Made by a program: the position numbers and the translations under genes
The notes under the pieces: model-generated
Told to the model about the DNA's origin: nothing
Databases searched by the model: none
The model's input: the letters and a program-made list of their open reading frames with translations, nothing else
Shown: positions 20,631-48,890 of the stretch, in pieces
Layout of the letters: each line of letters opens with the position of its first letter
Position numbering within the stretch: the stretch's first letter is position 1
Origin: a bacterium
GTDB taxonomy: Bacteria; UBP15; UBA6099
NCBI GenBank assembly: GCA_029564595.1
Contig: JAKQPS010000113.1
Span: forward strand, 32,227 to 96,226
Length of the DNA: 64,000 bases
Reading direction: 5' to 3'

Positions 20631-20666
20631 GCGTTGCACATCGTCGCAAAGATTCTTTCTTACTCA

Positions 20667-20808
20667 TCGTTATCCGTCCACTAATATGCACTATCGTTGC
20701 CAAGGTCGTTACTCATCATTGCCAAGACCGTTACTCATCGTTGCCCGCCCACTAATATCCACTATCGTTGCCAAGTCCGTTACACATCGTTGCCAAGGTC
20801 GTTATTCA
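20667..20808. repeat. 2 x 71 bp tandem repeat made of three 22-27 bp sub-repeats (TCGTTGCCAAGGTCGTTACTCA type), iteron-like
   Basis: Seen directly. Units at 20667, 20694, 20716, 20738, 20765, 20787. The overlapping ORF 20602..20994 simply translates the repeats. Confidence 0.8.
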
Positions 20809-20809
20809 T

Positions 20810-20901
20810 CGTTGCCAAGGTCTCCTTGGCAACGCAGAACCAATGACAATGAAAGCGGAGCTTCCGGCTCATCCGTTACCAAGGCAACCTTGGTAACGAT
20901 G
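20810..20901. repeat. Two REP-like palindromes (cgttgccaagg-tct-ccttggcaacg at 20810-20834; atccgttaccaagg-caa-ccttggtaacgatg at 20871-20901)
   Basis: Perfect 11-14 bp inverted arms around a 3-bp spacer. Confidence 0.8.
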
Positions 20902-20978
20902 AAAGAATTACTGTATTCTAGCATCAATCACGCATCCCCTGACAATTGCCGCATGCTAATAAGCGTTACCTTGTCATC

Positions 20979-22145
20979 TTACGAAGATGATTGATTGCGT
21001 TTTATCCATCCATATCCATGATTTTTGCTGATACTATTTGCGACATCCAGTATAATGCGTAAGTCTGTTGTAGGATAATTATTCATCAATTCTACGATTG
21101 GAACACATGTCTGCTTACTATCATCCGTGTTTAATATACTATCAGTAGAAACATCGATTGTATTCTGTTCATAATTTCTTAAAAACCAATTCTCCATTAC
21201 TAACCTCAACATTTGATTTTCAAACAGATATTTTATCCTATCATTTTTTGATATCGTATTATCCATCTTCAGCGCTTCTACGATTTTGCTTTGAGATTGG
21301 TCATCAAGTCCAACACTAGTGTGTTTTGTGATACCCCTAATAAAATATTCGTATGAGACAAAATGAATATCCTTGCCAGTTTCTGCTTTATACTCTTTAC
21401 GAAGTTCAGGTCTTGGACCGATTCTTTGTCCATTGATAAGTAGCCACCAGTCTTCTTTGTCATCTTGAGTGACAAATAATGTATGCTGGTTACGCTTACC
21501 CATTTCATTTATTGTTTGTTTCCAAATTAAGAAATCTCCATATTTATTTTCTCCTTCTTTATTATTGTCACAATAACCGGGCGGCGTTTTTTTAGAATAT
21601 CTACCATCTGCTTCTTTAAACAAATCTCTCAAATCATCGTCATTGAAATGTTGTCCGATACGACCTCGCATAATGCATATTATCCTGTCCAAATAAGGGT
21701 CTTTGTATCTTGATATAGGATATTTTTCAATGTCATCCTTAATTCTTTTTTTAGCTTCAGATAACACCTTCTCTATGTTTTTGTTTAACTCATCCCATTG
21801 TATTACCGAATTTGATCCTTGAGATCCATCAATACTGTTGATAATGTTTTTTAATACTACATCGATATCGTTAAAATATTTGCTAACTTTCTTTGCTTCC
21901 GTTATTTGATCGTCTATTAATTTAATCCGGGCATCGAAAAACTCCTTTGCAACCTGATGTGGCACCCATATCCTTCCTAATATCTTCTCGTTTTCAATTG
22001 TTTTTATAAGACCTTCCCTTTCTTTTGTTTGAAGCCGATAAATATTTAAGTAAATATTCGTATCAAATATTATAGTTCCATTGTTCCAAATATCTTTTAA
22101 CTCATCTTCTGAAAGCGGCCACAAATGCTTAAACTGGTCAGGCAT
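20979..22145 (-). CDS. PIN-like nuclease-domain protein (388 aa) on an AT-rich cassette
   Basis: N-terminal PIN-like acidic motifs (IIFDTNIYLN, YGDFLIWKQ, FVTQDDKEDWW). Gene GC about 33% against about 60% in the flanks. Confidence 0.55.
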   Translation of the reverse strand: MPDQFKHLWPLSEDELKDIWNNGTIIFDTNIYLNIYRLQTKEREGLIKTIENEKILGRIWVPHQVAKEFFDARIKLIDDQITEAKKVSKYFNDIDVVLKNIINSIDGSQGSNSVIQWDELNKNIEKVLSEAKKRIKDDIEKYPISRYKDPYLDRIICIMRGRIGQHFNDDDLRDLFKEADGRYSKKTPPGYCDNNKEGENKYGDFLIWKQTINEMGKRNQHTLFVTQDDKEDWWLLINGQRIGPRPELRKEYKAETGKDIHFVSYEYFIRGITKHTSVGLDDQSQSKIVEALKMDNTISKNDRIKYLFENQMLRLVMENWFLRNYEQNTIDVSTDSILNTDDSKQTCVPIVELMNNYPTTDLRIILDVANSISKNHGYGWIKRNQSSS

Positions 22146-22325
22146 AAATCACCGTATTCTTAAAATTATTGCATATCTCAAAACACACTCTGTGACGACT
22201 AATATAATATATTAAATCTAATTGTCAGTAAATACAACAAGCAACATGATAAGATCGAATAGCAACATAAGAATTCGTCTCTATTCACTCGATTCGCATC
22301 TATTACAGCAGAGCCATGTTTACTC

Positions 22326-22355
22326 ATCGTTACCAAGGTGACCTTGGTAACGATG
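22326..22355. repeat. REP-like palindrome catcgttaccaagg-tga-ccttggtaacgatg (partner of the 20871-20901 copy)
   Basis: Perfect 14-bp arms. Closes the AT-rich cassette. Confidence 0.8.
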
Positions 22356-22439
22356 AAAATATTGTGTCGTTCATTGTGGCGGGTTCACGCTCCCGTGCGT
22401 GGCTTTCAAACCCGGTGCGGGCGCGCGAAATAAAAGAAA

Positions 22440-22490
22440 ATGGGGACAATCAGCGCGGTTTTTCGCGATGGGTGTCCCCTTTTTTCGGTT
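22440..22490 (-). terminator. Intrinsic terminator after the GRE operon (hairpin ggggaca..tgtcccc with U-runs on both sides)
   Basis: Stem-loop followed by T-runs in both orientations. Lies 30 nt downstream of the ACAD stop. Confidence 0.55.
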
Positions 22491-22519: not shown

Positions 22520-23719
22520 TCACAGCAGGGCCATGCCTTTGATGGTCATTATCTCGTTTGTGGCGTCCATGATTTGCAGCAGTTTTGCGTCTCGCATGTA
22601 TTTCTCCAAGTTGTATTCTTTGGAGATGCCGTAACCGCCGAGTATCTGGACCATTTCAACGGTGTGCTTCATTGCAAGGTTGGTGGCAAAGACGCGGGCG
22701 GCGGCGGAAAGCTTGAGGTCGCCCATGAATTTGTTGGCGAGCGTCCAAGAGGCTTTCCAGAGGAGTCCGCGCGCGGCTTCTATCGCCTGATACGCCTCGA
22801 ACAGCCTGAAGCCTATTGCCTGATGCTGGAATATCGGTTTGCCGAACTGCACTCGCTCTTTGGCGTACTGCAACGCTTCTTCATACGCGGCGCGCATCAG
22901 CCCGACAGCCAGATATCCGACGCCGATGTTGCCGACTGTCTTTATCGCGTTGTGGATGGTGGGATAGCCGTCTCCGGGCGGCATTATCATGTTGCCCTCC
23001 GGGATGCGCGCGCCGTCGAAGCACACTTCGCCCTGATTCAACGCTCTCATGCCCAGCTTGTCCATGGATTTGCCGCGTTCGACGCCCTGCCCCAGCGGAA
23101 CAAGAAAAACGCCTGAACCTTTTATCCCCTTCGACGGGTCCACGCAGGCGAACACGAGGAACAGGTCGGCTATGCTGCCGTTGCTGACGAAGCTGGATTT
23201 TGCTCCGGTGATGACGTATTCGGAGCCTTCTTTTTTCGCGGATGTTTCGTGATGGACGCACGGGTCGTAGTAATTGCTGCCGTCCGAGCCGATGTTGCCT
23301 TCGGAGCTGCCCCATGCGGATATGTGCTCGGCTTTGGTGTCATCGCAGTAAGGAACGACATGTTTTTCGATGAGTTCTTTTTTGCCGCCGGCAAGAACGC
23401 TGAGGAACGCGGGGGCGACCATTCCGGCGAGCAGAGTGGCGGGAATGCCCACGCCGCCGACAGCGAGTTCTTCCCAGACCAGCGCGGTGCTAAGCGGGTC
23501 AAGCCCAAGCCCGCCGTGCTGGACGTTTATCGTCATCTTATGGAATCCCAACTCGTAAGCCTGCCTTAAAGTGTTCCTGAATTCAGGGCTGGCGTATGCC
23601 TCGTCCGGATTCTGCATTTTATCTATGGCAAGCTCGGCGGGCCTTATCACCTCGCGGGCGAACTTCTTTGCCATCTTCTGCAACTCAAGCTGTTCCTGCG
23701 TCGGTTTGAAATCAATCAT
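22520..23719 (-). CDS. Acyl-CoA dehydrogenase family protein
   Basis: ACAD fold throughout (C-terminal helical domain, conserved catalytic region). 4-nt overlap with the upstream gene. Confidence 0.85.
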   Translation of the reverse strand: MIDFKPTQEQLELQKMAKKFAREVIRPAELAIDKMQNPDEAYASPEFRNTLRQAYELGFHKMTINVQHGGLGLDPLSTALVWEELAVGGVGIPATLLAGMVAPAFLSVLAGGKKELIEKHVVPYCDDTKAEHISAWGSSEGNIGSDGSNYYDPCVHHETSAKKEGSEYVITGAKSSFVSNGSIADLFLVFACVDPSKGIKGSGVFLVPLGQGVERGKSMDKLGMRALNQGEVCFDGARIPEGNMIMPPGDGYPTIHNAIKTVGNIGVGYLAVGLMRAAYEEALQYAKERVQFGKPIFQHQAIGFRLFEAYQAIEAARGLLWKASWTLANKFMGDLKLSAAARVFATNLAMKHTVEMVQILGGYGISKEYNLEKYMRDAKLLQIMDATNEIMTIKGMALL

Positions 23720-24486
23720 TTCTCGAACCCCCAGTCAGTTCTTGCGAACGAGTAAGGAAGGAAAGCGTCCGGGTCGGCCTCGCCGACGACTTCGCCGGGA
23801 TGCATGATGGTGTCGCTTGTGAAGAAATATGCCGCCACCGGGCGCTTGCAGACGATTTCGCTCCAAGAGTCGTGCGCGGAAGGCTCGAATGTGATTTTGC
23901 CCATGCCCATCTCGAAAGAATGATAGACGATTTCCGTCCGCTGCCTGACGAGAAGAATCGGGCCGTCGAAGCCGGGTTTGAGGTCGGCGCGGGGCATGAA
24001 CTTGAAGAGGAAACTGGGGCCGACTTTGAGTGGCGGCTCGGCCATTTTGACAGCCAGTTCAGCCCTGATGGTCGCGAATCTAACACCTCTGCGCTCGACG
24101 GTTCCTTCGACAACTTTGTCTTCGCGGTTCAGAGTTATCTTCGCGGTTTTCTTCGGGAATCCGTAGATTTCCCGTCCGTTGAAAATCCGGTCGTCGTCGC
24201 CGTCGAGGGGCATGGACAGGCAGTAGTTGCCGACCTCGCCTTTATATTGGCACCTGATGAAAAGAGCGCACTCCCTGTATCCCGGCCCGAGGTTCGTGTC
24301 CGGAAAGTTCGAGATATAGGAAAGCGCCCACGGCTCGGCCGCAGGCTCCAATGGAGGCGGCAGAAGTTTCGCTATCACATCCGCTTCCGTCTCGTACATG
24401 ATGCCGAGCATCTGCGCCCCGTCGAACCTTCGTGTTGCGAATCCATAATAATTTTCAATTTCCTCTTTGCTTCTGATGAACCCCAT
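23716..24486 (-). CDS. Acetoacetate decarboxylase (ADC)-family protein
   Basis: 256 aa, ADC-like fold. Start chosen at MGFIRSKEE because of a strong GAGGAGG Shine-Dalgarno. The longer ORF in the track is a GC-rich extension. Confidence 0.7.
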   Translation of the reverse strand: MGFIRSKEEIENYYGFATRRFDGAQMLGIMYETEADVIAKLLPPPLEPAAEPWALSYISNFPDTNLGPGYRECALFIRCQYKGEVGNYCLSMPLDGDDDRIFNGREIYGFPKKTAKITLNREDKVVEGTVERRGVRFATIRAELAVKMAEPPLKVGPSFLFKFMPRADLKPGFDGPILLVRQRTEIVYHSFEMGMGKITFEPSAHDSWSEIVCKRPVAAYFFTSDTIMHPGEVVGEADPDAFLPYSFARTDWGFEK

Positions 24487-24563
24487 TTCCCAACCTCCTC
24501 TTAGTGTTTGAGCCGTCCGCTCGAAGCTTTCTACAGCCGTTCGCGTCCGGATTTTATTTGCTT

Positions 24564-27137
24564 TTAGGCGATATACTGCTCTGTGCGGGCTATCACCTCG
24601 TCCTGAATCTCCCTGCCGAGTTCGGTGAAATAAGCGCTGTATCCGCCGACTTTCACTATCAGGTCGCGGTGCGCGTCCGGGTCTTGCTGGGCTTCGCGCA
24701 TGGTTTCGGAAGACACGACGGTGGGCTGCAACTGAGCGCCGCCCATCTTGAAATATGCGCGTATGAGCGCGGCCCATTTCTTCCTCGCTTCTTGCGTTCC
24801 GCCGACGGCGGAGGGATGAAACTTCATGTTCACCGCCGCGCCTAGTATCTGCGTAAAATCAAGCGAGGCGACCGACCGCATAGCCGCAGTCACGCCATTC
24901 TTTTCGACGTTGTATGGATTGCAGCTCGCGGCGTACGGGGTCGCTGCGCGGCGTCCGTCGGGCGTGGCTATGGACAGCCTGCCGTCTATCGTGTGAGTGG
25001 TCATGCTTATCACGTACGGGACGAAGACACCGCCCCGGCTGGTCTTGTATTTGTAAGTTTCATCGAACATCGCGTTTGTCACCCGCCGCGCCAACTCGTC
25101 TGTCTCCGCGAAACCGTTCCCCCATTTTCCTTCAATTCCGGCTATCTCGCGCCGAAGGTCCTCGAGTCCGGCATAGTTCACGTTTATCGCCTCGATTATT
25201 TCGCGGAGCGCGAACTTGCGTTTTTCGAAAACGAGTTTTTTTATCACTAGAAGAGAGTCGGAAACGTTGGCGATGCTGTTAATGAAGGAAATGCCGCTGA
25301 GGTCGTACAGAGCGCCGCCGTTGACGACATCCCTGCCCTTTTCCGCGCATCCCTGCATGAACGCCGAGATCAGAGGAGCGGGAAGCATGTCGGCGAAGAC
25401 ATCGTCCTTGATATTCGACGCGTCGGCGATGAGTTTTATCTGATGCCGCGCCTGCTTGAGAAAAGCATCCTCGAAACTCTCGTAAGAGTCGAACGATTCA
25501 GGCTCGCCGGTCTTGAGTCCGACGTTTTTGATAAGGCCCATCATGGTGAGCGAGTTGCCGTTGCGCAAAGTTAGGTCGAGCAGCCGGGAAAGAAGAAGAG
25601 CCGAGGCGCTCATGCCGCCGGTCTTGCCCGGACACAGCATCTCGACGCAGCCCATCACGGCGTAGTCGCGGGCGTCAGCGTCGGAAAAACCGTGCCGCCG
25701 CATCGACTCGACATTGATATCGTCGTTGAAAAGAGAAATATTCGAGCCGCCCGTGAAAACCGCTTCCGCCGCCGCCGGAAGCAAGTCTTCAGGAGAATCC
25801 TTGTGCACGCGGAGAGAAACGTTGGTCACCGCTTTGGCTCTCGCGGCCGCTTCCAAGAACAGATAAGTCAATTCGTTTGTGCCGTCCGTCCCATCGGGTT
25901 TCACCCCGCCCACTGTGACAGGCGATGAACCGAGGAACCGGTGATAGAAATTGCTCAGCATGTTCGATTCCGGGCGTATGTTCTGGGACATTGTTTTGAG
26001 CAAAAGCTCTTCGAGCGCCGCGCGCGCTTCCTCCCGCGTTATTACTCCGGCCTCGATGTCTTTTTTGTAATAAGGATAAAATATCTGATCCATCCTGCCG
26101 AAGCTGTGGAGGTTGACCGGATGAGCAAGCTCCACCGCCGTCTTGACCGTCCACGCCGCTTGAACAGCCTGCATGAAAGTCTCCGACGGCATCAAGGGAG
26201 CGGTTTTGCAGTTTTCCAATGCGGCGCGAAGAGCGACTCTGCATTCCGGGACAAGTTCGTCTTCGAGCGCGGCTTTAACGGCGTCTGCCAGCCTGCGCGC
26301 GAAAACAATGGCGCCGTCTAGAGCCATTTCAACAGAGCGGTGAAAAGCCCGCGTTTCATCGTCCGCCGCAGCCGCGATCCTTTGCGCGGCCTCTTCCTTC
26401 ATCTTTAAAAGCCCTTTTTTTACTACCGTGTCGAAATCAATTATCACGTGCCCCTGATAAGAGGATATCGTCGAGCAGATCGACACCATCATAGTCTGCC
26501 GGGAGGTGATAGTTGGCAGCGCGAGACTGAATTCCCGCATGTCGTCGCCGAGCAGACCTGACGACATCAACCGACGGTCTACCTCTTCGACGACCGTTTT
26601 TCCCTCCCAGAACGGAAGAAGCTCGTTTACAAGAACTTTCCTGTCTTCCGGATCAATCACATATCTATTTATCTCGCGCTCGTCCATCGTTTTTATTTCA
26701 AGGTTCATGGGCTGCTGCCCGGCGGCGCGGGACGCTTTCATGTTTCGCGCGAAATCCCGCAGACCGCGTTTGCCGACAAGATACGAAAGAGCGCCGCCTA
26801 GAGACTTGAATCTGAATCTCATTATCGATCCGCGCGCAAGCTCGGTTTTAAAAACCCCGTTGAACACTCCCCGCTCAATGTCGATTGGGATGCCCATGAA
26901 ATCTTCCGTCCAGTATCCCGCGATGAGGTCTTCCGGCTCGACATGCATGTCCATGTTTTCATACACGTTCTTCATAGCGAGAGCCACGCGCTCGCCTGCG
27001 GTCAGTCCGGAGCCTTCCGTCTTCCTCCAGCTTTCGGTGTAATATTTCGCGCGCTGGATTGAAATCTTCGGAGTCTCCAGAATATACCTGTCGCGCAACT
27101 CGGCAATCCGGTTTTTGTTTTTCTCAAGAGTCAGCAT
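24564..27137 (-). CDS. Glycyl radical enzyme, PFL2/glycerol-dehydratase family
   Basis: N-terminus resembles CutC/GDH/HypD-type enzymes (RAKYYTESWRKTEG). Active-site Cys in MGCVEML. C-terminal glycyl-radical motif VKVGGYSAYF. Confidence 0.9.
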   Translation of the reverse strand: MLTLEKNKNRIAELRDRYILETPKISIQRAKYYTESWRKTEGSGLTAGERVALAMKNVYENMDMHVEPEDLIAGYWTEDFMGIPIDIERGVFNGVFKTELARGSIMRFRFKSLGGALSYLVGKRGLRDFARNMKASRAAGQQPMNLEIKTMDEREINRYVIDPEDRKVLVNELLPFWEGKTVVEEVDRRLMSSGLLGDDMREFSLALPTITSRQTMMVSICSTISSYQGHVIIDFDTVVKKGLLKMKEEAAQRIAAAADDETRAFHRSVEMALDGAIVFARRLADAVKAALEDELVPECRVALRAALENCKTAPLMPSETFMQAVQAAWTVKTAVELAHPVNLHSFGRMDQIFYPYYKKDIEAGVITREEARAALEELLLKTMSQNIRPESNMLSNFYHRFLGSSPVTVGGVKPDGTDGTNELTYLFLEAAARAKAVTNVSLRVHKDSPEDLLPAAAEAVFTGGSNISLFNDDINVESMRRHGFSDADARDYAVMGCVEMLCPGKTGGMSASALLLSRLLDLTLRNGNSLTMMGLIKNVGLKTGEPESFDSYESFEDAFLKQARHQIKLIADASNIKDDVFADMLPAPLISAFMQGCAEKGRDVVNGGALYDLSGISFINSIANVSDSLLVIKKLVFEKRKFALREIIEAINVNYAGLEDLRREIAGIEGKWGNGFAETDELARRVTNAMFDETYKYKTSRGGVFVPYVISMTTHTIDGRLSIATPDGRRAATPYAASCNPYNVEKNGVTAAMRSVASLDFTQILGAAVNMKFHPSAVGGTQEARKKWAALIRAYFKMGGAQLQPTVVSSETMREAQQDPDAHRDLIVKVGGYSAYFTELGREIQDEVIARTEQYIA

Positions 27138-27164
27138 CGTTAGTCTCCCTCGCGCGGTCGCGCT

Positions 27165-27839
27165 TCAACCGTCCAGAACCGACGCGTCGGCAAACTTGTC
27201 CAGCATTGCGTCGACCACCATCCTGACATGCTCCCTGCGTTCGGCCAGCGCGCTTTTAGCCAGAGGATCGCCCTTCCACAGCAACTCAAGCGCGGGCGCG
27301 TATGTGTAGTAATTTATCGCCAACCCGAACAGAGTGACGAAAAAATGTCTGGGCGCGACAGCCCCGCCGCCGGGCAGCAAAGCCCCGAACGCGACCTCTC
27401 CCCACCTCTGCAACGGCTCCATGTATTGCGCTATTTTCTCCAAACTCTGCGACCTAGAACATATCTCTCTCTGAATAAGCCGCGCGTAACCGGGATTCAA
27501 CTCCACGAAATCCAGATACGCTTCCATTCCGGCGTGAACCTTCTGCCTCGCAGTCCCTCCCGCGGTCAATGCGCCTATCAATGCCTGCGCCTGCGACTTG
27601 TAGTAAACGTCCAACACGTTGTCAAACAGGTTCTTTTTGCTTTCGAAATAATAGAACACAAGAGCTTTCGCGACTCCCGCCTTCTCCGCAATGTCGTTAA
27701 CGCTCACTCCGTCGTGTCCGCGCTCTATAAACAACTCTTCCGCCGCCCTGAAAATCTTTTCTCTTGCGTCCGGCTCGGACACCTTCGCTTCATTTTCGGT
27801 GACGACGTCTTTTTTCGTTAGTGTGTTCATCTTAATCAC
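27165..27839 (-). CDS. TetR/AcrR-family transcriptional regulator
   Basis: HTH region GHDGVSVNDIAEKAGVAKALVFYYF. GTG start at 27839, or ATG at 27830. Confidence 0.85.
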   Translation of the reverse strand: MIKMNTLTKKDVVTENEAKVSEPDAREKIFRAAEELFIERGHDGVSVNDIAEKAGVAKALVFYYFESKKNLFDNVLDVYYKSQAQALIGALTAGGTARQKVHAGMEAYLDFVELNPGYARLIQREICSRSQSLEKIAQYMEPLQRWGEVAFGALLPGGGAVAPRHFFVTLFGLAINYYTYAPALELLWKGDPLAKSALAERREHVRMVVDAMLDKFADASVLDG

Positions 27840-27878
27840 CGCCGAAACAGTCGGAGCGCATAATTATTTGCGAACATC

Positions 27879-27924
27879 TTGACCGAATGGTCAACTCCTG
27901 TCATTATGTTAACCGAGCGGTCAA
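27879..27924. promoter_or_regulatory. Two tandem palindromic operator candidates: TTGACCgaatGGTCAA and TTAACCgagcGGTCAA
   Basis: Perfect and near-perfect 6-4-6 inverted repeats in the divergent promoter region between the TetR and SDR genes. Confidence 0.5.
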
Positions 27925-28015
27925 AGACTGTCAAGACATATCGCCGAATTTAACCTAACCTTTCGCAAATGCTGGAAATAACAAGGTTAGATCGGCGGCA
28001 GGGAGGATGAATAAT

Positions 28016-29032
28016 ATGAAAGCGCTTGTCACTGGAGCAGACGGGCTTCTTGGAGGCAACCTAGTCCGGGAAATGATAGAAAGAGGAATCGAAGCGCGGG
28101 CGATAGTGCATCCGAAAAGCCTGTCTCGCACTCTCGACGGTCTTCCGATAGAGCGAATAACCGGAGACATCCTTGACGCCGGAGAGTTGGCAGAAGCGGC
28201 AAAGGGATGCGACGCGGTGTTCCATGTCGCGGCGTCCACCGCTCTCTGGCCGCCCAAGTCTCCCATAATCACCGCCGTGAATGTGGAAGGCACGCGGAAT
28301 ATGCTGGACGCGGCGGTCAAAGCGGGCGTGAAGAGGTTCGTCCATGTCGGTTCCGCCAGTTCGTTCGGGTATGGAACCAAAGAGCGGCCCGGAGACGAGT
28401 CGACTCCTTTTAAATACGCTGATTTCGGTCTAGCCTATTTTGATTCCAAGCTGGAAGCTCAAAGAATCGCGTTGAAGCACGCCGCCGACGGCAAGCTGGA
28501 CGTTGTGGTGGTGAATCCGACATTTATGATAGGCCCGTTCGATTCCGGCCCCAGTTCAGGGAAAATGATTTCTAAATTCGCCGAAATGAGGCCGCCGTTC
28601 TACCCGCCGGGAGGCCGCAACTTCATACACGCGCGAGACGCGGCAAAAGGAATGCTTGCGGCGTGCGAGCGAGGACGGACCGGGGAATGTTACCTTCTGG
28701 GCAACAGGAATATGGATATGAAGGAATTTTTCAGCGAGGTCGCGCGCGTGGCGGGCTTCAAGCCGCCCGCGCTTGAGATTCCCAAAGAGATAATGATGAT
28801 TGCCGGGGCCGCCGGATCGGCTATTAGCAACATAACCGGAAAGCAGCCTGAACTATCCTATGAAATGGCCCGCAGTTCGTGTGTCGGCGCGTATTATAGC
28901 GCCGCGAAGGCGGTCAGAGAGCTTGCCCTGCCGCAGACGCCGATAGAGACGGCGGTGGAGGAAGCGTACGAATGGCTCGCCGAAAACGGGCACATCAAGA
29001 GCGCGCGAGGTCGCGCCGGAAAGAGGCGATGA
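28016..29032 (+). CDS. NAD(P)-dependent epimerase/dehydratase-family oxidoreductase (extended SDR)
   Basis: Rossmann motif VTGADGLLGGNL. Catalytic Y..K region. Confidence 0.75.
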   Translation: MKALVTGADGLLGGNLVREMIERGIEARAIVHPKSLSRTLDGLPIERITGDILDAGELAEAAKGCDAVFHVAASTALWPPKSPIITAVNVEGTRNMLDAAVKAGVKRFVHVGSASSFGYGTKERPGDESTPFKYADFGLAYFDSKLEAQRIALKHAADGKLDVVVVNPTFMIGPFDSGPSSGKMISKFAEMRPPFYPPGGRNFIHARDAAKGMLAACERGRTGECYLLGNRNMDMKEFFSEVARVAGFKPPALEIPKEIMMIAGAAGSAISNITGKQPELSYEMARSSCVGAYYSAAKAVRELALPQTPIETAVEEAYEWLAENGHIKSARGRAGKRR

Positions 29033-29850
29033 GCATGGCCGCTAAACATTTCGAGAACAAGACCGCTCTCATAACCGGGGGCAGCCGGGGGATAGGGCTT
29101 GCGGTGGCGCGCGAACTGTCGCGCAGAGGCGCCCGCTGCGCCATCGCCGCGCGCGGAGCCGAACGGCTCGAACGCGCCCGCGCCTCTCTCGCCTCAGACG
29201 GTTTCGACGTCCTCACTATTCAAGCAGACGTCGCGGACGCTGCGTCTTGCGCCGACATGGTCTCTCGCGCAGTCGCGGAGTTCGGGCGTCTGGACATCCT
29301 TGTAAACAACGCGGGCGTATCTATGCGCGCCAACCTCGAAGACCTCGACGCCGAAGCCTGCCGCTCGATGGTGGACATCAATCTGATGGGGTGCATATAT
29401 CCGACGCTCAGCGCGCTCGATCAACTGAAGAACAACAAAGGCAGTGTCGTCTTCACGTCCAGCATAGCGGGTCTGATAGGGCTGCCGACGGCGACGATAT
29501 ATTGCGCGACCAAGCACGCGCTTCGCGGATTCGCGGACGCGTTGAGGTGCGAGATCGGGCCGGACGGCGCGCATGTCGGCGTCGTCTATGTCGGGTTCAC
29601 TGAAAACGACCCTGAGAAGAAAGTGGTCAGCGCGGACGGAGGAGCCGTCCCGCCCGGCCCGGCGCACATGACACAGGAGCAAGTGGCGCGCGAGTTCGCC
29701 GAGCTAATCCGCCACCGGCGCTCCCGCGCCGTGCTTTCGCCAATCGGCAAATTGGCCGAGCTTGCCGGAAGGCTGTCTCCGGACATCGTCGGCGAAGCCA
29801 TCGTCTTCAGCCGCAAAACCAAACTCAACGAGCGCCTCGGCATATCCTGA
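29029..29850 (+). CDS. Classical short-chain dehydrogenase/reductase
   Basis: TGGSRGIGLAVA, NNAG, YCATK motifs. ATGA overlap with the upstream gene. Confidence 0.8.
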   Translation: MSMAAKHFENKTALITGGSRGIGLAVARELSRRGARCAIAARGAERLERARASLASDGFDVLTIQADVADAASCADMVSRAVAEFGRLDILVNNAGVSMRANLEDLDAEACRSMVDINLMGCIYPTLSALDQLKNNKGSVVFTSSIAGLIGLPTATIYCATKHALRGFADALRCEIGPDGAHVGVVYVGFTENDPEKKVVSADGGAVPPGPAHMTQEQVAREFAELIRHRRSRAVLSPIGKLAELAGRLSPDIVGEAIVFSRKTKLNERLGIS

Positions 29851-30216: not shown

Positions 30217-31125
30217 TTAACGTTCATCGAAACGGATTATCGTTTCCATCCCGTTGTGATCGCTAATCAGTCGTCCCGAAACCAACTCGTCGAACACCCA
30301 CCGCGCTGATTCTATGGTTATTTTCCAGTCCGACCCGTTCTCGTCGTAGAAAAGATGGTCCACATGGTCGAGATGAGCGCTGGCCATTTTTAGTTTTGAA
30401 TTCTGAAGGAGCCAATCGCAATCCTCTTCACCGGGATTGCAGTTGAAATCGCCGTGGATGATAACCGGCCGCCGCGTACCGCCTGAAAACCTCTCGACCG
30501 CCGCCATCATCTGCTTATAGTTCTCGATTCTCGGCTTGGGACCGAATCCCGCCTGCGCGTGCAGCGTGTAAATGTCTATCTCCAGCCCGCCGGGCAGAAC
30601 CGTGGTCGCGCCGAGAAATCCTTTATGGCTGAAAGCGTCAACTCCGAACTGCTCTTTCCATCTCTCGAAAACCGACCTCTGTATTTCGCCTTTTGAGAAA
30701 ATGTACAATCCGCTTCCTGTCGGGGACGTCGGCGAGCCTGTCCCCATGGCCACGAAATGGTTTTTCAGCCTGCGCGGAAAAACCTCTCTCTCCGGAATGA
30801 ACGCTTCCTGCAGCCCTATGACATCATAGTCTTTGATGAGCTTGGCGATGAGCGTGGCCCTTTTTTCCGTCGGAACCAGCAGGTTGCGGTCAAATGTTAT
30901 GAAATCCGGGAGCATACAGACGTTGTACGTCAGGAATTTCAAAGTGTGAGATTTCTTCGGCGACTGTTCCGCTGTTTCAGACGCCGACGCCGTCAACGGA
31001 ACCAAAACCGCCATTGCCGTAAAAACAGCGGAAACAATCAAAGCGATGCCATGTCTTTTCAGATTGGAGTTCAAGAGTCGGCAACCATCCTTTTCAACCA
31101 TGCGCTTCGGCGATGGCGATTTCAT
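30217..31125 (-). CDS. Secreted endonuclease/exonuclease/phosphatase (EEP)-family protein (sphingomyelinase-like)
   Basis: Signal peptide. EEP motifs YNVCMLP, GLQE, IIHGDFN, SDHNG. Confidence 0.65.
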   Translation of the reverse strand: MKSPSPKRMVEKDGCRLLNSNLKRHGIALIVSAVFTAMAVLVPLTASASETAEQSPKKSHTLKFLTYNVCMLPDFITFDRNLLVPTEKRATLIAKLIKDYDVIGLQEAFIPEREVFPRRLKNHFVAMGTGSPTSPTGSGLYIFSKGEIQRSVFERWKEQFGVDAFSHKGFLGATTVLPGGLEIDIYTLHAQAGFGPKPRIENYKQMMAAVERFSGGTRRPVIIHGDFNCNPGEEDCDWLLQNSKLKMASAHLDHVDHLFYDENGSDWKITIESARWVFDELVSGRLISDHNGMETIIRFDER

Positions 31126-31137
31126 TGTTAAGAGCGA

Positions 31138-32334
31138 TTATTTGAAAACTTTTACAATAATGCCCAAGGCCTCTTCTATCTGGTCTTTCGTAATTATAAG
31201 AGGCGGAGCGAATCTGATGATGTCGGGCCGGGCGTCTTTGGCCAGCAGCCCGGCGTCGAGCAACTCAAGCGATTTGTCATGAGCGACAGGTTTTTCAAGA
31301 ACCACGCCGACAAGCAGTCCTTTGCCACGAACCAGAGAAACGCCGGGAAGCTTAAGCTCCCGAAGGCGGGACATGAAAAATTCTCCCATAATCGCGGAGT
31401 TCTCGACCATTTTTTCATCCCGCAGCGCGTCCATCGCGGCTATCGCAACAGCGGCGGCGAGAGGGTTGCCGCCGAACGTGCTTCCATGCGTGCCATGAGT
31501 GAAAACGCTCATCACGTTCTCGTTCGCGCAGACTGCGGACACCGGAAGAACGCCTCCGCCCAGAGCTTTTCCGAGCGTGACTATGTCGGGCCGGATTCCG
31601 TAATGCTCGAAGCAGAACATTTTTCCCGTGCGCCCGAGCCCGGTCTGAATCTCGTCTAGGCACAAAAGAACGTTGCGCCTGTCGCAAATCTCCCGTACGC
31701 GGGCCAGATAGTCGTCTGGAGGGACCACCACCCCGCCCTCTCCCTGTATCGGCTCAAGCAGAACGCCCGCCGTGTCCTCGGTAATAGCGGCCTCAAGAGC
31801 GGCGGCGTCCCCGAACGGGACGATGTCGATTCCGGGAAGAAGCGGGCCGAAGCTTTTCTTAGTCGTATCGCTGGTGGACATGCTGATGGCGGCTATGGTG
31901 CGGCCGTGAAAGTTGTTGGCGGCGGCGATAATTCCAGCGCGGCCGTCGGGGACGCCCTTGATTTCGTGCGCCCATTTGCGCATCGCCTTAAGCGCCGTCT
32001 CGACCGCTTCCGCCCCAGTGTTCATGGGCAACGCCTTCTCGAACCCCGTCAGCGCGCACAATTTTTCGAGGAACGGCCCAAGCATGTCATTGTGAAACGC
32101 CCTAGATGTGAGGGTCGCCCGCCCGGCCTGCTCTATCAGCGCCTTAACTATTTTAGGATGCCTGTGCCCGTGGCTCATCGCAGAGTACGCGCTCAGCATG
32201 TCCATATACCTGCGCCCCTCCGGATCCCACACGTATACGCCTTCGCCTTTCGATATGCACACCGGGAGTGGCTCATAGTTTCGCGCGCACCACTTATCCG
32301 CAAGCTTCATCAGTCTTTCGCTTTCGCTGCCCAT
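31138..32334 (-). CDS. Ornithine/acetylornithine aminotransferase (class III PLP)
   Basis: Class-III aminotransferase signatures (LCLDEIQTGLGRTGK, TLGKALGGG). Closest in feel to ornithine-oxoacid transaminase. Confidence 0.8.
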   Translation of the reverse strand: MGSESERLMKLADKWCARNYEPLPVCISKGEGVYVWDPEGRRYMDMLSAYSAMSHGHRHPKIVKALIEQAGRATLTSRAFHNDMLGPFLEKLCALTGFEKALPMNTGAEAVETALKAMRKWAHEIKGVPDGRAGIIAAANNFHGRTIAAISMSTSDTTKKSFGPLLPGIDIVPFGDAAALEAAITEDTAGVLLEPIQGEGGVVVPPDDYLARVREICDRRNVLLCLDEIQTGLGRTGKMFCFEHYGIRPDIVTLGKALGGGVLPVSAVCANENVMSVFTHGTHGSTFGGNPLAAAVAIAAMDALRDEKMVENSAIMGEFFMSRLRELKLPGVSLVRGKGLLVGVVLEKPVAHDKSLELLDAGLLAKDARPDIIRFAPPLIITKDQIEEALGIIVKVFK

Positions 32335-32463
32335 GCAAAGTTGATCCCATCTTAAAATATTAGGCCGCGCAGACCTTCGCGCGACCCCGAATAATATACA
32401 TCATTGATGGTTTTTTTTCATCAATTCCGCGTTCCGCGGCGTTCACGGTCTATAATTTCGATT

Positions 32464-33816
32464 ATGAGCGAACCGAAAGTGATATTGAGGCGCTGCGAGA
32501 CCGCCGACCCGGCGAGAATCAGAGCCATCATAGCGGAGTGTTTTGAGGAACTGCAGTTTCACCCGCGCGGGCGAACTCTCATAAAACCCAACGTCGTCAC
32601 CGCAAACAGGCAATACATACATCACTCGCACACTCACCCGGCAGTGACGGAAGCTCTAGCTCATCACCTGAAAACCCGACCCGAAGTATCGCAGATTACC
32701 ATCGGCGAATCCTCCGGCTTCGGCATACCTCCCGGACTTTTCATGCATGAGGCCGGTTACGACGCCCTCGCTCGTCGGCTCAAAGTGCGACTTGTCGATT
32801 TTAACGAGGACCGCGCGACTTGGGTGGACTTGAAGAAAGCCGTCGCTCAGAAAGGGTTCCACGTCCCCCGCTCCATCCTCGAAGCCGACACGAAAATCTG
32901 GGTCCCGAAACTGAAGTATCATATCTGTTGCGAAGTGACGAACGCGCTGAAGCTCAACATAGGAATCCTACAGCACCGGGACCGGATGGCCGTCCACGAC
33001 AACCGGCTCAACGACAAGATAGTGGATATGCTGGAAATCGGATATCCTGACTGCGTCGTCACGGACGCGATACACATCGGGCACGGGTTTGAGAGCGCGC
33101 CTCAGGGATTCCATCTCGGCCTGCTGCTGGTGTCGAACAATCCGCTAGCCGCAGACGCGGTCGCCGGCGCGGCCCTCGGTTACAAACCCGAAGAAATCGT
33201 TCATCTGCGCATCGCGCGCGACAGAGGCTACGGCTCAATTGACCTCGACGACATCAGTATTTCAGGGGACTATCCGCTGGATGAAATCATATCCAAGACA
33301 AAGGGGCTGACAAGCGAATATCAGGACATACTAGCGGTGGACACGCCGATAAAGTTTTATTGCGGAGACGCGCCGGAACACGAGCCGGAGAACGCTCCCT
33401 CGCCGAACTGTTCGCCGTCCGTGCGCAGGGAGTCCGACAGCGAGAACTTCTGTTACGGGGGCTGCCTCGCGGCGGTCAAAGGATGCCTCGGCACGATAGA
33501 CAAACGCCGCCCCGGCTCCGTCGCGCGCGCCCGCCCCGGCGCTGTCGTCACCGGCATCTACAAAGGCGATGTCATACATCCCGGCCAGACGGCTTTTCTC
33601 ATCGGCGACTGCTCCCGCGTTGACGGCAGGCTCGAAGCGAAACGCGTCATCAGGCTCGCCGGATGCCCCATAGGAGCCTCCAAGCTGCTGATAAAAATGC
33701 CGAGCGTCTTCAAGATGCCTTCCCCCATGAGCGACGCGCGCTCAGCCGCCCAGTTCATCTACTTCACCCTCCGCCACGCCCTAAGAAAACTCGCCCTCAA
33801 AATCATCCCCGGCTAA
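32464..33816 (+). CDS. DUF362-domain protein (Cys-rich C-terminal region)
   Basis: DUF362-like N-terminal region (LIKPNVV), then Cys clusters (CSPSV..CYGGC..C). ATG at 32464. Confidence 0.6.
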   Translation: MSEPKVILRRCETADPARIRAIIAECFEELQFHPRGRTLIKPNVVTANRQYIHHSHTHPAVTEALAHHLKTRPEVSQITIGESSGFGIPPGLFMHEAGYDALARRLKVRLVDFNEDRATWVDLKKAVAQKGFHVPRSILEADTKIWVPKLKYHICCEVTNALKLNIGILQHRDRMAVHDNRLNDKIVDMLEIGYPDCVVTDAIHIGHGFESAPQGFHLGLLLVSNNPLAADAVAGAALGYKPEEIVHLRIARDRGYGSIDLDDISISGDYPLDEIISKTKGLTSEYQDILAVDTPIKFYCGDAPEHEPENAPSPNCSPSVRRESDSENFCYGGCLAAVKGCLGTIDKRRPGSVARARPGAVVTGIYKGDVIHPGQTAFLIGDCSRVDGRLEAKRVIRLAGCPIGASKLLIKMPSVFKMPSPMSDARSAAQFIYFTLRHALRKLALKIIPG

Positions 33817-45688: not shown

Positions 45689-46294
45689 TCAATCGTTCAT
45701 CAGAATAAGCCTTGAGAACTTCGCCGGGGCGCGATTCTTGGCTCGCCCCACTGCCTTTTTGCCTTCGAGAAATCCTATTTCCAACGCCTTCATATTTAAC
45801 GCTTCGGTTCCTTTCGGGGAACGCGAAAGAACCGCCGCTTTAATGGCGTTTTTCGACACCACTCCGGTCGCTTCCGCAAGAGCGCCGAGCGACAGGGAGT
45901 TCATCGCTTGCAAAGAACCGGCTTTCTCCCTTGCAAGCGAAGTCATCGGAATCTCGTATGCCGTCGAGATCGGTATCTGAGAGCATAAATCCGAATTGAC
46001 GATAAGCGTTCCCGTCTCTTTAAGGTCCATAAAATACTCGTCTAGAGAAGCCTGATTGTAGCACATCAGAATATCAAGATTCTTCGCTTTCGGGTAATCG
46101 ATGTAACTGTCGCTGATGACCACCTCGGCCTTGCAGTTGCCGCCTCTGGCCTCCGGCCCGTAACTCTGTGTCTGGCACACGTATCGCCCGTCGTGAATCC
46201 CGGCCGCTTCAGCAAGAATTATCGAGGCCAGAATGACCCCTTGGCCTCCTGAACCGGCTATCCTTATTTTTATTCTCTCTTTTTCTATTTTCAT
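45689..46294 (-). CDS. korC: 2-oxoacid:ferredoxin oxidoreductase gamma subunit
   Basis: Gamma-subunit family (IAGSGGQGVILAS). Confidence 0.8.
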   Translation of the reverse strand: MKIEKERIKIRIAGSGGQGVILASIILAEAAGIHDGRYVCQTQSYGPEARGGNCKAEVVISDSYIDYPKAKNLDILMCYNQASLDEYFMDLKETGTLIVNSDLCSQIPISTAYEIPMTSLAREKAGSLQAMNSLSLGALAEATGVVSKNAIKAAVLSRSPKGTEALNMKALEIGFLEGKKAVGRAKNRAPAKFSRLILMND

Positions 46295-46296
46295 CT

Positions 46297-47124
46297 TTAT
46301 GCGCCGCCTCCGGATTTCCGGATTACCTCGTCATACATCTCGCAATACTCCGGATAATCGAAGTCGGCAAGAATCCCAATCTCCATCTTGCCCATCCTCT
46401 CTTCATCCGAGAGTTTCTGAAACGCCTCTGTCCTTACGCTGTTGTCGCGCATCCAGCGCATCATGTCAGTCGGCTTTCCCATCTTGTTCCTTCTTCCGAA
46501 AGTGGTGTGGCAATAAGCGGCTACTTCGAGCATACAGAACCCTTTTTTCGTAATCGCGCTCATTATCAGATTGTCCAGCATGGGGACGTGATAGACGGTT
46601 CCGCGGGCGACCCAAGAGGCGCCAGACCCGCGCGCAAGCTCGCAGATGTCGAACGGGCGCTCGATATTGCCAAACGCGGAGGTGGCGGACTTCGCTCCCA
46701 TCGGAGTCGTCGGCGAATACTGTCCTCCCGTCATTCCGTACACGTTGTTGTTTATCACTATCGCGCAAAGGTCGATGTTGCGCCTCGCGGTGTGTATGAA
46801 ATGGTTGCCGCCTATCGCCGTCGCGTCTCCGTCTCCCATCACGACTATCACGGTCAGTTTCGGATTGGCAAGCTTTATGCCGGTGGCGAAGGACAGCGCC
46901 CGGCCGTGCGTGGTGTGAAGCGTGTTGAAATCCACATACACAGGGAGCCTCCCCGAACACCCTATGCCAGAAACCACCACCACGTTGTCCTGATCCAGCC
47001 CCAGCCTGTCTATCGCCCTTATCATCGCCCCCATCAGAATCCCGTCTCCGCAGCCGGGACACCACAAATGAGGGAATTTCTTTTCGGATCGGAGGTATTT
47101 GTGAACCAGTTTCGTGCGCTCCAT
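46297..47124 (-). CDS. korB: 2-oxoacid:ferredoxin oxidoreductase beta subunit (TPP-binding)
   Basis: CPGCGDG plus TPP motif GDGDxxxIGGNH. Confidence 0.9.
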   Translation of the reverse strand: MERTKLVHKYLRSEKKFPHLWCPGCGDGILMGAMIRAIDRLGLDQDNVVVVSGIGCSGRLPVYVDFNTLHTTHGRALSFATGIKLANPKLTVIVVMGDGDATAIGGNHFIHTARRNIDLCAIVINNNVYGMTGGQYSPTTPMGAKSATSAFGNIERPFDICELARGSGASWVARGTVYHVPMLDNLIMSAITKKGFCMLEVAAYCHTTFGRRNKMGKPTDMMRWMRDNSVRTEAFQKLSDEERMGKMEIGILADFDYPEYCEMYDEVIRKSGGGA

Positions 47125-47125
47125 C

Positions 47126-48358: not shown

Positions 48359-48635
48359 TGCCGCTTCCCCCTTTCTTTTTTGTTCGCGTGATGGCAAAAT
48401 CAGGGCATCTCAGTTCGCACACGCCGCAGCTTACACAATCCGATGGCTTGGCCAGTTTTGCTTTCTGCTTGGCTTCGTCTAGTATCAGAGCGCCCTGAGG
48501 ACAGAACTCGACGCAAATTCCGCATCCCTTGCACCATTTCTCGAACACCACTATCGGAAGGTCTACGCCGTTGACTTCGTCCTGTTCGACGCGTCCCACA
48601 AGGTCGGGTTTTCTCCGACTCTTCGCTTTAACCAT
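48339..48635 (-). CDS. korD: 2-oxoacid:ferredoxin oxidoreductase delta subunit (2x[4Fe-4S] ferredoxin)
   Basis: CKGCGICVEFCP and CVSCGVCELRCP. Start at MVKAKSRR. Confidence 0.8.
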   Translation of the reverse strand: MVKAKSRRKPDLVGRVEQDEVNGVDLPIVVFEKWCKGCGICVEFCPQGALILDEAKQKAKLAKPSDCVSCGVCELRCPDFAITRTKKKGGSGNGEKSD

Positions 48636-48890
48636 GCATGCGCCTCCCCTGTCGTCGTCTCCGCATATTATACTACCGGGAAAACTTAAATACATGTCGA
48701 AAAACGAATTCAACCATATCATGCCCAGACGCGAAACGATGCCGCCGATTATCCGCGCCCGCGTATTGCCTGTCCGCAATGCATTACACAAATTTCAATA
48801 TTTTTAAAACCCTTGCCCGCGCGCTTAAAATTCTGCTAAACTACTAATCGCAAGGCGCATGTGAAAAAAATAACAAGGGGGCCGGGTTTT

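Follow-up and report, generated by a model that had tools for sequence, protein, structure and literature searches.

Some of the most difficult reactions of anaerobic metabolism are carried out by glycyl radical enzymes (GREs), and newly assigned GRE clades have given pathways for choline, hydroxyproline, sulfonates, and anhydro-sugars. Here we describe a GRE locus from a bacterium of the GTDB lineage UBP15, UBA6099, located in a stretch of 64,000 nucleotides (positions 32,227 to 96,226 of contig JAKQPS010000113.1, GenBank assembly GCA_029564595.1) that was analyzed as a whole and is called the window below. Four tightly packed minus-strand genes (22520 to 27830) encode a TetR-family repressor, the GRE, a protein with the acetoacetate decarboxylase (ADC) fold, and a flavoprotein resembling the acyl coenzyme A (acyl-CoA) dehydrogenases (ACADs), and two genes for short-chain dehydrogenases/reductases (SDRs) are transcribed divergently from them. 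Judged from their sequences, the six genes are a conserved module, and the GRE represents a widespread, uncharacterized clade with an unprecedented set of partners. In general outline, we think it reasonably probable that this is a TetR-repressed catabolic module with an eliminase- or isomerase-type GRE at its center and an activase that acts in trans.

A review of June 2026 enumerates the enzymes GD (glycerol dehydratase), PD (1,2-propanediol dehydratase), HpfG, HypD (trans-4-hydroxy-L-proline dehydratase), HpyG, HpzG, CutC, IslA/IseG, HpsG, HplG, YbiW, and PflD, none of them with ADC or ACAD partners, and states that whole clades, archaeal GREs especially, remain unassigned. Full-text literature searches found no papers linking GREs to ADC or ACAD partners. 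A preliminary description of this DNA had put forward a candidate new GRE-based catabolic module whose ADC and ACAD partnership is unlike that of the characterized GRE pathways. Both proposals have held: the genes are a conserved unit, the GRE reaches no characterized equivalog, and the review contains no pathway with such a partner set.

The glycyl radical enzyme and its closest described relatives

The GRE gene (24564 to 27137, minus strand) encodes 857 amino acids with matches to the Pfam domains PFL-like (PF02901, E = 3e-135) and Gly_radical (PF01228, E = 4e-21). The radical glycine is Gly832 in IVKVGGYSAYF, where a Lys replaces the usual Arg of the canonical RVxG[FWY]; this KVGGYS variant was invariant in 20 GRE homologs found by word search. 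The Cys loop reads MGCVEM and contains Cys497 and Glu499 in a Cys-x-Glu (CXE) arrangement. Both motifs had been given in the preliminary description and are read directly in the translation, and the TetR, GRE, ADC-family, and ACAD-family genes that it named were all confirmed by open reading frame (ORF) translation and Pfam. The fold (a ten-stranded barrel with a C-terminal glycyl radical domain), the radical Gly, and the Cys-loop Cys place the protein in the PFL-like superfamily. In pairwise alignments, Cys497 corresponds to HypD Cys434 and PD Cys438, and His230 corresponds to PD His166 and to the His of GD and HypD (GD His164). Within the clade that we call subfamily A, delimited below, Cys497 and His230 are present in 50/50 sequences and Glu499 in 47/50, and the Cys is likewise found in 38/38 sequences of the sister group, subfamily B. 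According to the June 2026 review, the CXE motif is common to all eliminases and isomerases, and in GD this Glu deprotonates while the His protonates the leaving group.

The AlphaFold2 (AF2) model of the GRE had a pTM of 0.86 and matched GD, HypD, PD, and CutC in Foldseek with TM-scores of 0.82 to 0.89 at 26 to 28% identity, within a range of 21 to 28% to every solved member and 21 to 22% to benzylsuccinate synthase (BSS). Residues ∼84 to 147 make up a family-specific insertion of 64 residues that has no counterpart in solved GREs and is predicted as three helices (pLDDT, ∼83 to 88). In phmmer searches of the Protein Data Bank (PDB), solved eliminases and isomerases scored 240 to 354 bits, compared with ∼176 to 177 bits for BSS, 174 for MASS, 176 for 4-hydroxyphenylacetate decarboxylase (HPAD), and 90 for PFL. 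The NCBIfam models scored far below their cutoffs: HpsG, 423 bits against 1000; HypD, 412 against 1100; CutC, 394 against 1050; and PRK09983, 371 against 1109. No membership was found in any characterized equivalog (GD/PD, HypD, HpfG/HpsG, CutC, IslA, or YbiW/PflD), as all NCBIfam cutoffs were missed. The comparison with characterized subfamilies that the preliminary description had called for thus gave no tight clustering, and the GRE is probably a member of an uncharacterized clade, subfamily A, of the 1,2-eliminase/isomerase type (PFL2 group).

The B12-independent C-O eliminases GD and PD (PDB 1R8W and 5I2G) share with this protein the fold, the Gly-radical domain, the CXE loop, and the His, and relatives of the window GRE also use a radical S-adenosylmethionine (SAM) activase of the TIGR02494 type. 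However, they are only 26 to 27% identical to it; the window GRE has Ala511, opposite an Asp that follows the Cys loop and that we take to be GD Asp447, as well as the N-terminal-region insertion and KVGGYS rather than RVxGY. The gene contexts differ too, with a microcompartment, an aldehyde dehydrogenase, and a 1,3-propanediol dehydrogenase in GD and PD systems and, in the window, two SDRs, an ADC-like protein, and an ACAD-like protein of an Asp type.

HypD (PDB 6VXC) is the best solved match at 354 bits and shares the CXE motif and His, but the HypD model is missed by a wide margin, and no P5C reductase or other proline-pathway gene lies nearby. Three HypD residues, which we take to be Asp278, Ser334, and Tyr450, stand opposite Asn342, Tyr398, and Ala513 of the window GRE. 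The Archaeoglobus fulgidus PFL2 (PDB 2F3O), an enzyme of debated function, is the most similar solved GRE by identity (28%; 336 bits) and likewise belongs to an uncharacterized, partly archaeal region of GRE diversity. Unlike the window GRE, it has an adjacent activase, PflC. The isomerases YbiW and PflD of "anhydroglycolysis" are alike in their CXE chemistry and in cleaving C-O bonds to give a ketone. They score 272 to 302 bits, however, and the residue set of the window GRE is more hydrophobic; the context of subfamily B (sugar transporter, kinase, aldolase, and the iron-type alcohol dehydrogenase Fe-ADH) follows the same logic as theirs, whereas subfamily A is without those genes.

The C-S lyases HpsG and IslA/IseG also came into consideration. 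HpsG is reported as the second-best NCBIfam model, and a TauE/SafE (TSUP) permease stands beside the cluster in five relatives (L005, 6440 to 7168; L088, 2175 to 2891; L091, 1216 to 1962; L022; and L031; L numbers denote related loci), though not in the window. The window has no sulfite reductase context. The HpsG sulfonate triad of R183, Q187, and R672 aligns to Gln228, a gap, and Pro707 of the window GRE, and with this Arg/Gln/Arg triad absent, the C-S lyase idea, taken from the recurrent permease, was rejected for the known binding mode.

A module conserved across phyla

Homologs of the GRE number in the hundreds, all from metagenomes or metagenome-assembled genomes (MAGs). A scan of one genome per species with the pattern KVGGYS[TA]YF gave 79 related loci, whose ORFs were annotated from their BLAST matches to the window proteins and to two cognate activases; the identities were confirmed on Pfam-annotated contigs. 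The loci fall into two sister groups, subfamily A, with GREs at least 54% identical to that of the window, and subfamily B, with GREs 49 to 53% identical to it.

Module counts were made on 30 nonredundant subfamily A loci with enough flanking DNA. The extended SDR (SDRe) was found in 25/30, the ADC-like protein in 23/30, the ACAD-like protein in 22/30, a TetR gene before the GRE in 21/30, and an activase in 18/30. Where the genes form a single operon, they are typically ordered TetR, GRE, activase, SDRe, the classical SDR (SDRc), ADC, and ACAD. Several relatives have SDRe and SDRc fused into one protein of ∼600 amino acids. The window shows a rearranged version that it has in common with its closest relatives (L005, L006, L008, L012, L014, and L046). 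The ADC-like and ACAD-like genes are adjacent wherever they are found, and a 4-nucleotide overlap between them is kept in the clade of the window. The preliminary description had suggested that the divergent SDR pair may belong to the same pathway and had named neighborhood conservation as a check. In most relatives the SDRs are located inside the operon, between activase and ADC, and are sometimes fused, which indicates that the window pair is part of the system, and the GRE, ADC, and ACAD genes recur together across distant phyla.

Subfamily A occurs in Myxococcota, Actinomycetota, Thermodesulfobacteriota, Nitrospirales, Gemmatimonadota, Hydrogenedentota, and Phycisphaerae, in unclassified bacteria including ADurb.Bin236 and UBA6099, and in some Asgard archaea. 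The module set is thus found in eight or more bacterial phyla and, in incomplete form, in the Asgard archaea. Comparison of the window with three sister assemblies (synonymous divergence, dS, of 0.14 to 0.6) gave ratios of nonsynonymous to synonymous substitution (dN/dS) of 0.05 to 0.06 for the GRE and 0.01 to 0.09 for the other five genes. These low values in all six genes point to a system maintained by selection.

An additional gene was seen in some relatives. A 507-amino-acid protein with a URO-D domain (uroporphyrinogen decarboxylase/methyltransferase-like) and a small N-terminal beta domain is encoded between TetR and GRE in L022, L023, L026, L034, L037, and L041 and after the GRE in L020. 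The protein may be a further decarboxylase of the pathway; it has no counterpart in the window.

The subfamily B loci (L049, L054, L056 to L057, L059, L061 to L064, L071, L074, and L076 to L087) have a different context, consisting of a second TetR type, an MFS_2 sugar transporter, an activase, an Fe-ADH, an FGGY kinase, and a DeoC-like aldolase. Often there are two tandem GREs, and the Cys loop reads GCVD, with Asp in place of the Glu of all characterized eliminases. This suggests, by analogy, that subfamily B serves an uncharacterized sugar route resembling the YbiW/PflD anhydroglycolysis. At positions where subfamily A has the specific residues Leu402, Met509, Ala511, and Ile710, subfamily B has Glu, Glu or Ile, Phe, and Asn, respectively. 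The more hydrophobic residues of subfamily A, together with the lack of a conserved dedicated transporter in its loci, suggest a substrate less polar than the sugar-like one implied for subfamily B.

Asgard MAGs of the Promethearchaeota and Helarchaeota carry both subfamilies (L015, L017 to L020, L064 to L065, L072, L076 to L077, L079, L082 to L086, and L090). Asgard GREs have been labeled alkyl- or benzylsuccinate synthases (Ass/Bss) on the basis of 29 to 33% identity and a single conserved Cys (PMC8163825). If those proteins are the Asgard members found here, the CXE and CXD loops and the gene contexts argue against the Ass/Bss label for these clades.

Partner enzymes

The ADC-like protein (23716 to 24486, minus strand; 256 amino acids; PF06314, E = 2e-50) has the fold, the Schiff-base Lys-Lys pair, and the Glu76 equivalent of the clostridial ADC. 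In its FPKK motif, Lys114 is present in 37/37 orthologs and Lys115 in 34/37, and Glu74, the Glu76 equivalent, is invariant. However, alignment to CaADC, CvADC, and 3C8W puts Ala26 and Tyr59 at the positions of the clostridial Arg29 and Glu61, both residues with roles in CaADC. The protein scores 75 bits against the NCBIfam acetoacetate decarboxylase model NF002614, which has a cutoff of 150. Its sequence makes it a member of the ADC superfamily only, short of a true ADC. The family is small, with 406 proteins at an E value of 1e-5 or better, and the four matches with a checked or recognizable context (P0253, P0255, P0319, and P0359) all belong to GRE clusters.

The ACAD-like flavoprotein (22520 to 23719, minus strand; 399 amino acids) matches four ACAD Pfam domain models, with N-terminal, middle, and C-terminal ACAD domains (PF02771, PF02770, and PF00441), and its PDB matches reach 189 bits. 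It shares these domains with butyryl- and acryloyl-CoA dehydrogenases, but it is far below the equivalog cutoffs; the best NCBIfam match, acryloyl-CoA reductase, gave 215 bits against a cutoff of 640. The motif QIMDATNE aligns to QIYEGTNE of Bcd (PDB 1BUC), so that Asp385 takes the place of the catalytic Glu at the (I/L)YEGT position of the MCAD/SCAD/Bcd type, which is the position compared here as distinct from the Glu position of the IVD/LCAD type. The Met-Asp of this motif is invariant in 34/34 orthologs. We take nitroalkane oxidase to be a precedent for an Asp base at this position.

SDRe (28016 to 29032, plus strand; 338 amino acids) matches the Pfam Epimerase and 3Beta_HSD models and has the GxxGxxG and YxxxK motifs. 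Its best PDB match is 3WJ7, a putative oxidoreductase, at 187 bits, and it also resembles aldehyde and ketone reductases. SDRc (29029 to 29850, plus strand; 273 amino acids; adh_short, E = 2e-51) has the TGxxxGxG and YxxxK motifs and scores 224 bits against PRK06181 (cutoff, 215), a generic classical SDR. The stop codon of SDRe overlaps the start of SDRc by 4 nucleotides. No gene for a CoA ligase, a CoA transferase, an ETF, or a thiolase is conserved in the related clusters or present in the window.

Transcription units and their control

Co-transcription of the GRE, ADC-like, and ACAD-like genes, with 4-nucleotide coupling between the last two, had been proposed in the preliminary description. 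The coupling is seen as an ATGA overlap of the ADC-like stop codon and the ACAD-like ATG. A single minus-strand unit headed by tetR is supported by cross-phylum synteny, by the conservation of that overlap, and by a predicted terminator directly after the ACAD-like gene. The TetR gene (27165 to 27830, minus strand; 221 amino acids; PF00440 TetR_N, E = 3e-16) starts with the ATG at 27830, in agreement with the 221-amino-acid call in public contigs, and ends 27 nucleotides before the GRE start codon. The gap between the GRE and ADC-like genes is 77 nucleotides. The ADC-like start was placed at the ATG at 24486, which has an AGGAGG Shine-Dalgarno sequence in front, and the longer ORF was not taken. 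No small ORFs were found between the genes of the operon, so there is no beta, gamma, delta, or Fe-S small-subunit gene for the GRE. Located 40 nucleotides past the ACAD-like stop is a hairpin resembling an intrinsic terminator (22428 to 22479, minus strand; GGGGACA...TGUCCCC, then AUUUUCUUUUAUUU), with a minimum free energy of -21.9 kcal/mol and a z score of -3.2 relative to shuffled sequences. The hairpin and the U run that follows it suggest that the transcription unit ends there.

Two putative operators are located in the 176-bp divergent intergenic region between TetR and the SDR pair. Operator O2 (27879 to 27894) is the perfect palindrome TTGACCATTCGGTCAA, with zero mismatches, and is conserved in relatives; operator O1 (27909 to 27924), TTGACCGCTCGGTTAA, has one mismatch and is 30 bp from O2. 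They are the sole sites with at most one mismatch in the window. The pair is also found upstream of TetR in five orthologous loci (L005, L006, L008, L014, and L046), spaced by 29 to 33 bp and, in three of the five, by 30 bp. Its conservation in loci with GREs only 59 to 70% identical amounts to a phylogenetic footprint.

The predicted promoters overlap these sites. On the minus strand, a sigma-70-like promoter for tetR, GRE, ADC, and ACAD (27906 to 27934; TTGACA, 17 nucleotides, TAACAT) shows 10 of 12 consensus matches and is the best match in an 8-kb scan, by consensus only. Its spacer and -10 element are overlapped by O1, and O2 is just downstream. The sigma-70-like promoter for the SDR pair (27879 to 27907, plus strand; TTGACC, 17 nucleotides, CATTAT, with a TG extension) is likewise a consensus match, the best in the region on its strand, with its -35 element overlapped by O2 and its start region by O1. 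Because the operators interlock with both predicted promoters, one repressor would control both units, and control of the two divergent units by a single TetR repressor through two putative operators is supported. The preliminary description had read tandem operators in a divergent promoter and a TetR gene divergent from the GRE. The operators are indeed found in the TetR/SDR intergenic region, but the second is imperfect, and tetR is the first gene of the GRE's own minus-strand unit, running in the same direction.

The missing activase

A GRE normally has the gene for its cognate radical-SAM activase beside it, and related loci commonly have one there; the window GRE does not. A scan of the window ORFs for CxxxCxxC motifs gave no activase candidate, its only match being a PF03692 protein; a tblastn search of the window with two cognate activases recovered a ferredoxin domain only; and none of the ∼50 window ORFs had a Pfam Radical_SAM match. 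The absence of an activase from the 64 kb, as first described, therefore stands, and the possibility raised with it, that an activase is located just outside, was also checked: none was found in a further 7.4 kb past the low end of the window (sequence taken from syntenic contigs) or within 8 kb of the operon in the ADurb.Bin236 GenBank contig. A tblastn search revealed no degraded activase in the gap after the ACAD-like gene or in a PIN-domain island downstream of it. The ADurb.Bin236 contig is without this island and likewise without an activase, which argues that the island did not displace one.

The absence is a feature of the lineage, however, and not a hallmark of the system. An adjacent activase is missing from 12/30 subfamily A loci (∼40%), and in the other 18 it is of the TIGR02494 type (319 to 326 bits; cutoff, 174). 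Its place varies: after ACAD in L005 and in the P0124 contig, between GRE and ADC in L008, and next to the TauE permease in L091. With an activase in most relatives and strong purifying selection on the genes here, the most economical reading is that the window GRE is activated in trans and is not activase independent.

Three MAGs (L044/L063, L017/L082, and L018/L085) combine an activase-less subfamily A GRE with a subfamily B GRE that has an activase on another contig, and the GREs of both subfamilies have the same KVGGYS Gly loop. Their sequences are consistent with one activase serving paralogous KVGGYS GREs. The June 2026 review describes cross-activation among GREs whose Gly loops are conserved.

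Proposed pathway and alternatives

In the pathway that we propose, TetR would be freed from both operators by an inducer that is probably fairly hydrophobic and is probably the substrate or an intermediate. A radical-SAM activase encoded elsewhere in the genome would activate the GRE, which would then abstract a hydrogen from a hydroxyl-bearing carbon. Glu499 would deprotonate the hydroxyl and His230 would help to expel a vicinal O-linked group (hydroxyl or ether), giving a ketone or an aldehyde. The two SDRs may interconvert alcohol and carbonyl on the substrate or product, and the ADC-like enzyme, with its Schiff-base Lys, and the ACAD-like flavoprotein, with its Asp base, would process the carbonyl product; the Schiff-base lysine implies the need for a ketone. 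In the last step, desaturation would be combined with decarboxylation or with a retro-aldol cleavage, and no dedicated CoA ligase or transferase appears to take part.

A more specific version, which we offer as speculation and consider rather unlikely as a whole, would make subfamily A a new class of GRE reaction among anaerobes, a radical C-O lyase with a hydrophobic hydroxy-ether or a vicinal diol as its substrate. The ketone formed would be broken down independently of CoA by an Asp-type ACAD-like desaturase and an ADC-fold hydratase/retro-aldolase or decarboxylase. The substrate could then be a lignin-type β-aryl ether, an alkoxy-alcohol, or a lipid or terpenoid polyol. Two other routes were considered. 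The canonical acetoacetate route, in which the GRE would convert a 3-hydroxy-4-X-butyrate to acetoacetate and ADC would convert this to acetone, is weakened by the lack of Arg29 and Glu61 in the ADC-like protein and by the hydrophobic GRE residues. A PFL-type formation of acyl-CoA to feed the ACAD-like protein was rejected, given the single Cys and a score of only 90 bits to PFL.

Several observations weigh against the proposed module and its chemistry. Ala511 replaces the Asp that binds the substrate hydroxyl in GD and PD, so the substrate would not be a simple small diol bound in the known manner. The active-site mapping derives from pairwise sequence alignments, and the AF2 model has a pLDDT below 50 at residues 495 to 508 and 712 to 740, in the Cys loop and adjoining loops, which makes it too uncertain there for an analysis of the pocket. 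Every member of the GRE family comes from an uncultured organism, and the collection of Gly-loop sequences is biased by the pattern used to search for them. The trans activase was not located: among the best 120 homologs of the nearest relative's activase, from 5.8 billion proteins, none was named for ADurb.Bin236, and P0122, P0124 (by context), and P0126 (by contig) belong to the clusters of other relatives. ACAD-family enzymes normally need thioesters of CoA or of a carrier protein, and yet no CoA-activating gene is conserved, which leaves the role proposed for the ADC-like and ACAD-like enzymes a conjecture. Finally, the ADC-ACAD pair is missing from 7/30 loci, and in L093 (8692 to 11967) it is accompanied by a second ACAD but by no GRE within 10 kb; the ADC-like protein of that locus is 70% identical to that of the window. 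This distribution indicates a semi-autonomous unit, and the pair may be separable from the rest.

That last point leads to the rival that survives best, although we consider it unlikely, namely, that two adjacent pathways are present, one formed by GRE, activase, and SDRs (such as an eliminase for diols or ethers together with aldehyde reductases) and the other an independent ADC-ACAD module. The position of the pair does vary between loci (ahead of TetR, after the SDRs, or on the other strand), and L089 consists of GRE, activase, and fused SDRs alone. Against separate pathways, the ADC-like or ACAD-like gene accompanies the GRE in 22 to 23 of 30 loci across distant phyla, in the window a single promoter and a single terminator are predicted to serve both the pair and the GRE, and the ADC-like family is small, with the four contexts that were checked or recognizable all in GRE clusters.

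Somewhat less favored, and in our view improbable, is a biosynthetic or modifying cluster that would tailor, for example, a membrane lipid or a hopanoid-like or sterol-like polyol. SDRe matches the hopanoid-associated HpnA best among the NCBIfam models (285 bits), followed by SdmB, a sterol demethylase reductase (165 bits), but the HpnA score is below the cutoff of 368 and the nearest solved relative is a generic putative oxidoreductase. The lack of a conserved importer and the presence of the family in Myxococcota and Asgard archaea also speak for such a cluster; however, neither the window nor the annotated related loci contain squalene, hopene, or sterol genes, and local autoregulation through a TetR and a divergent promoter is the typical arrangement of inducible catabolic genes.

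The lack of an activase in the window, in its 7.4-kb extension, near the operon in the ADurb.Bin236 contig, and by name among the best 120 homologs would also fit a GRE that has become a nonfunctional relic after activase loss. We regard this as very improbable: the low dN/dS values extend to the partners, there are no stop codons, the catalytic residues are intact, and of the 40% of related loci that are also without an adjacent activase, some come from genomes that have one elsewhere. The least probable reading of all, an X-succinate synthase that activates hydrocarbons or a decarboxylase acting on arylacetates, is one that follows from homolog annotations (a 98%-identical protein is named "4-hydroxyphenylacetate decarboxylase large subunit" at NCBI, and Asgard homologs are called Ass/Bss) and that is contradicted by PDB scores of 174 to ∼176 bits for MASS, HPAD, and BSS against 300 to 354 for eliminases, by the 21 to 22% Foldseek identity to BSS, by 252 bits against a cutoff of 1150 for the HPAD model NF033715, by the lack of a small-subunit ORF in the 77-nucleotide GRE-ADC gap, and by a CXE and His signature that fits eliminases.

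Surrounding genes

Directly downstream of the operon is a low-GC (40%) gene with a PIN_8 domain (20979 to 22145, minus strand). It is flanked by the near-identical palindromes TCATCGTTACCAAGGT.ACCTTGGTAACGATGA at 22324 to 22356 and 20874 to 20903, and an array of half-sites and 71-nucleotide repeats is located at 20660 to 20840, the whole island extending from 20640 to 22360. The core CCTTGGYAACGATG occurs six times, compared with 0.02 expected. The ADurb.Bin236 GenBank contig does not have the island, and the junction there is within the repeats. The island resembles a site-specific insertion or cassette, and a PADLOC search gave no match for the PIN protein.

On the other side, beside the SDR pair, are genes for an EEP-family phosphoesterase, a class III aminotransferase, and a DUF362 protein with a Cys-rich C-terminal extension (30217 to 33816). 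They are syntenic in the near-identical contig L001 and not in more distant relatives, and given this limited synteny, they are probably unrelated to the module. A second extended SDR, of the Epimerase/3beta-HSD type and 29% identical to SDRe (48861 to 49937), adjoins a four-subunit 2-oxoacid:ferredoxin oxidoreductase (45689 to 48791, minus strand). The rest of the window contains housekeeping genes, including those for RecN, MreB, the Mla transporter, Lgt, Tgt, glutamine synthetase, DAHP synthase, HtrA, and PriA. No Rfam family reached its gathering score in the 64 kb.

Implications

The clade is abundant in sediment and digester MAGs, in at least eight bacterial phyla and in Asgard archaea, and has no cultured or characterized member. 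Its partner set of two SDRs, an ADC-fold Schiff-base enzyme, and an Asp-type ACAD-like flavoprotein matches no known GRE pathway. If the C-O lyase reading were true, the module would provide a hitherto undescribed, CoA-independent route of anaerobic C-C cleavage that has spread horizontally between bacteria and Asgard archaea. The loci that are missing an adjacent activase are a natural test case for the cross-activation of GREs by nonadjacent activases, a subject flagged as poorly studied in the June 2026 review. Defining the substrate of subfamily A would correct the database names of homologs, now called HPAD, PFL, or alkylsuccinate synthase, and it would add a reaction to carbon cycling in anoxic habitats.

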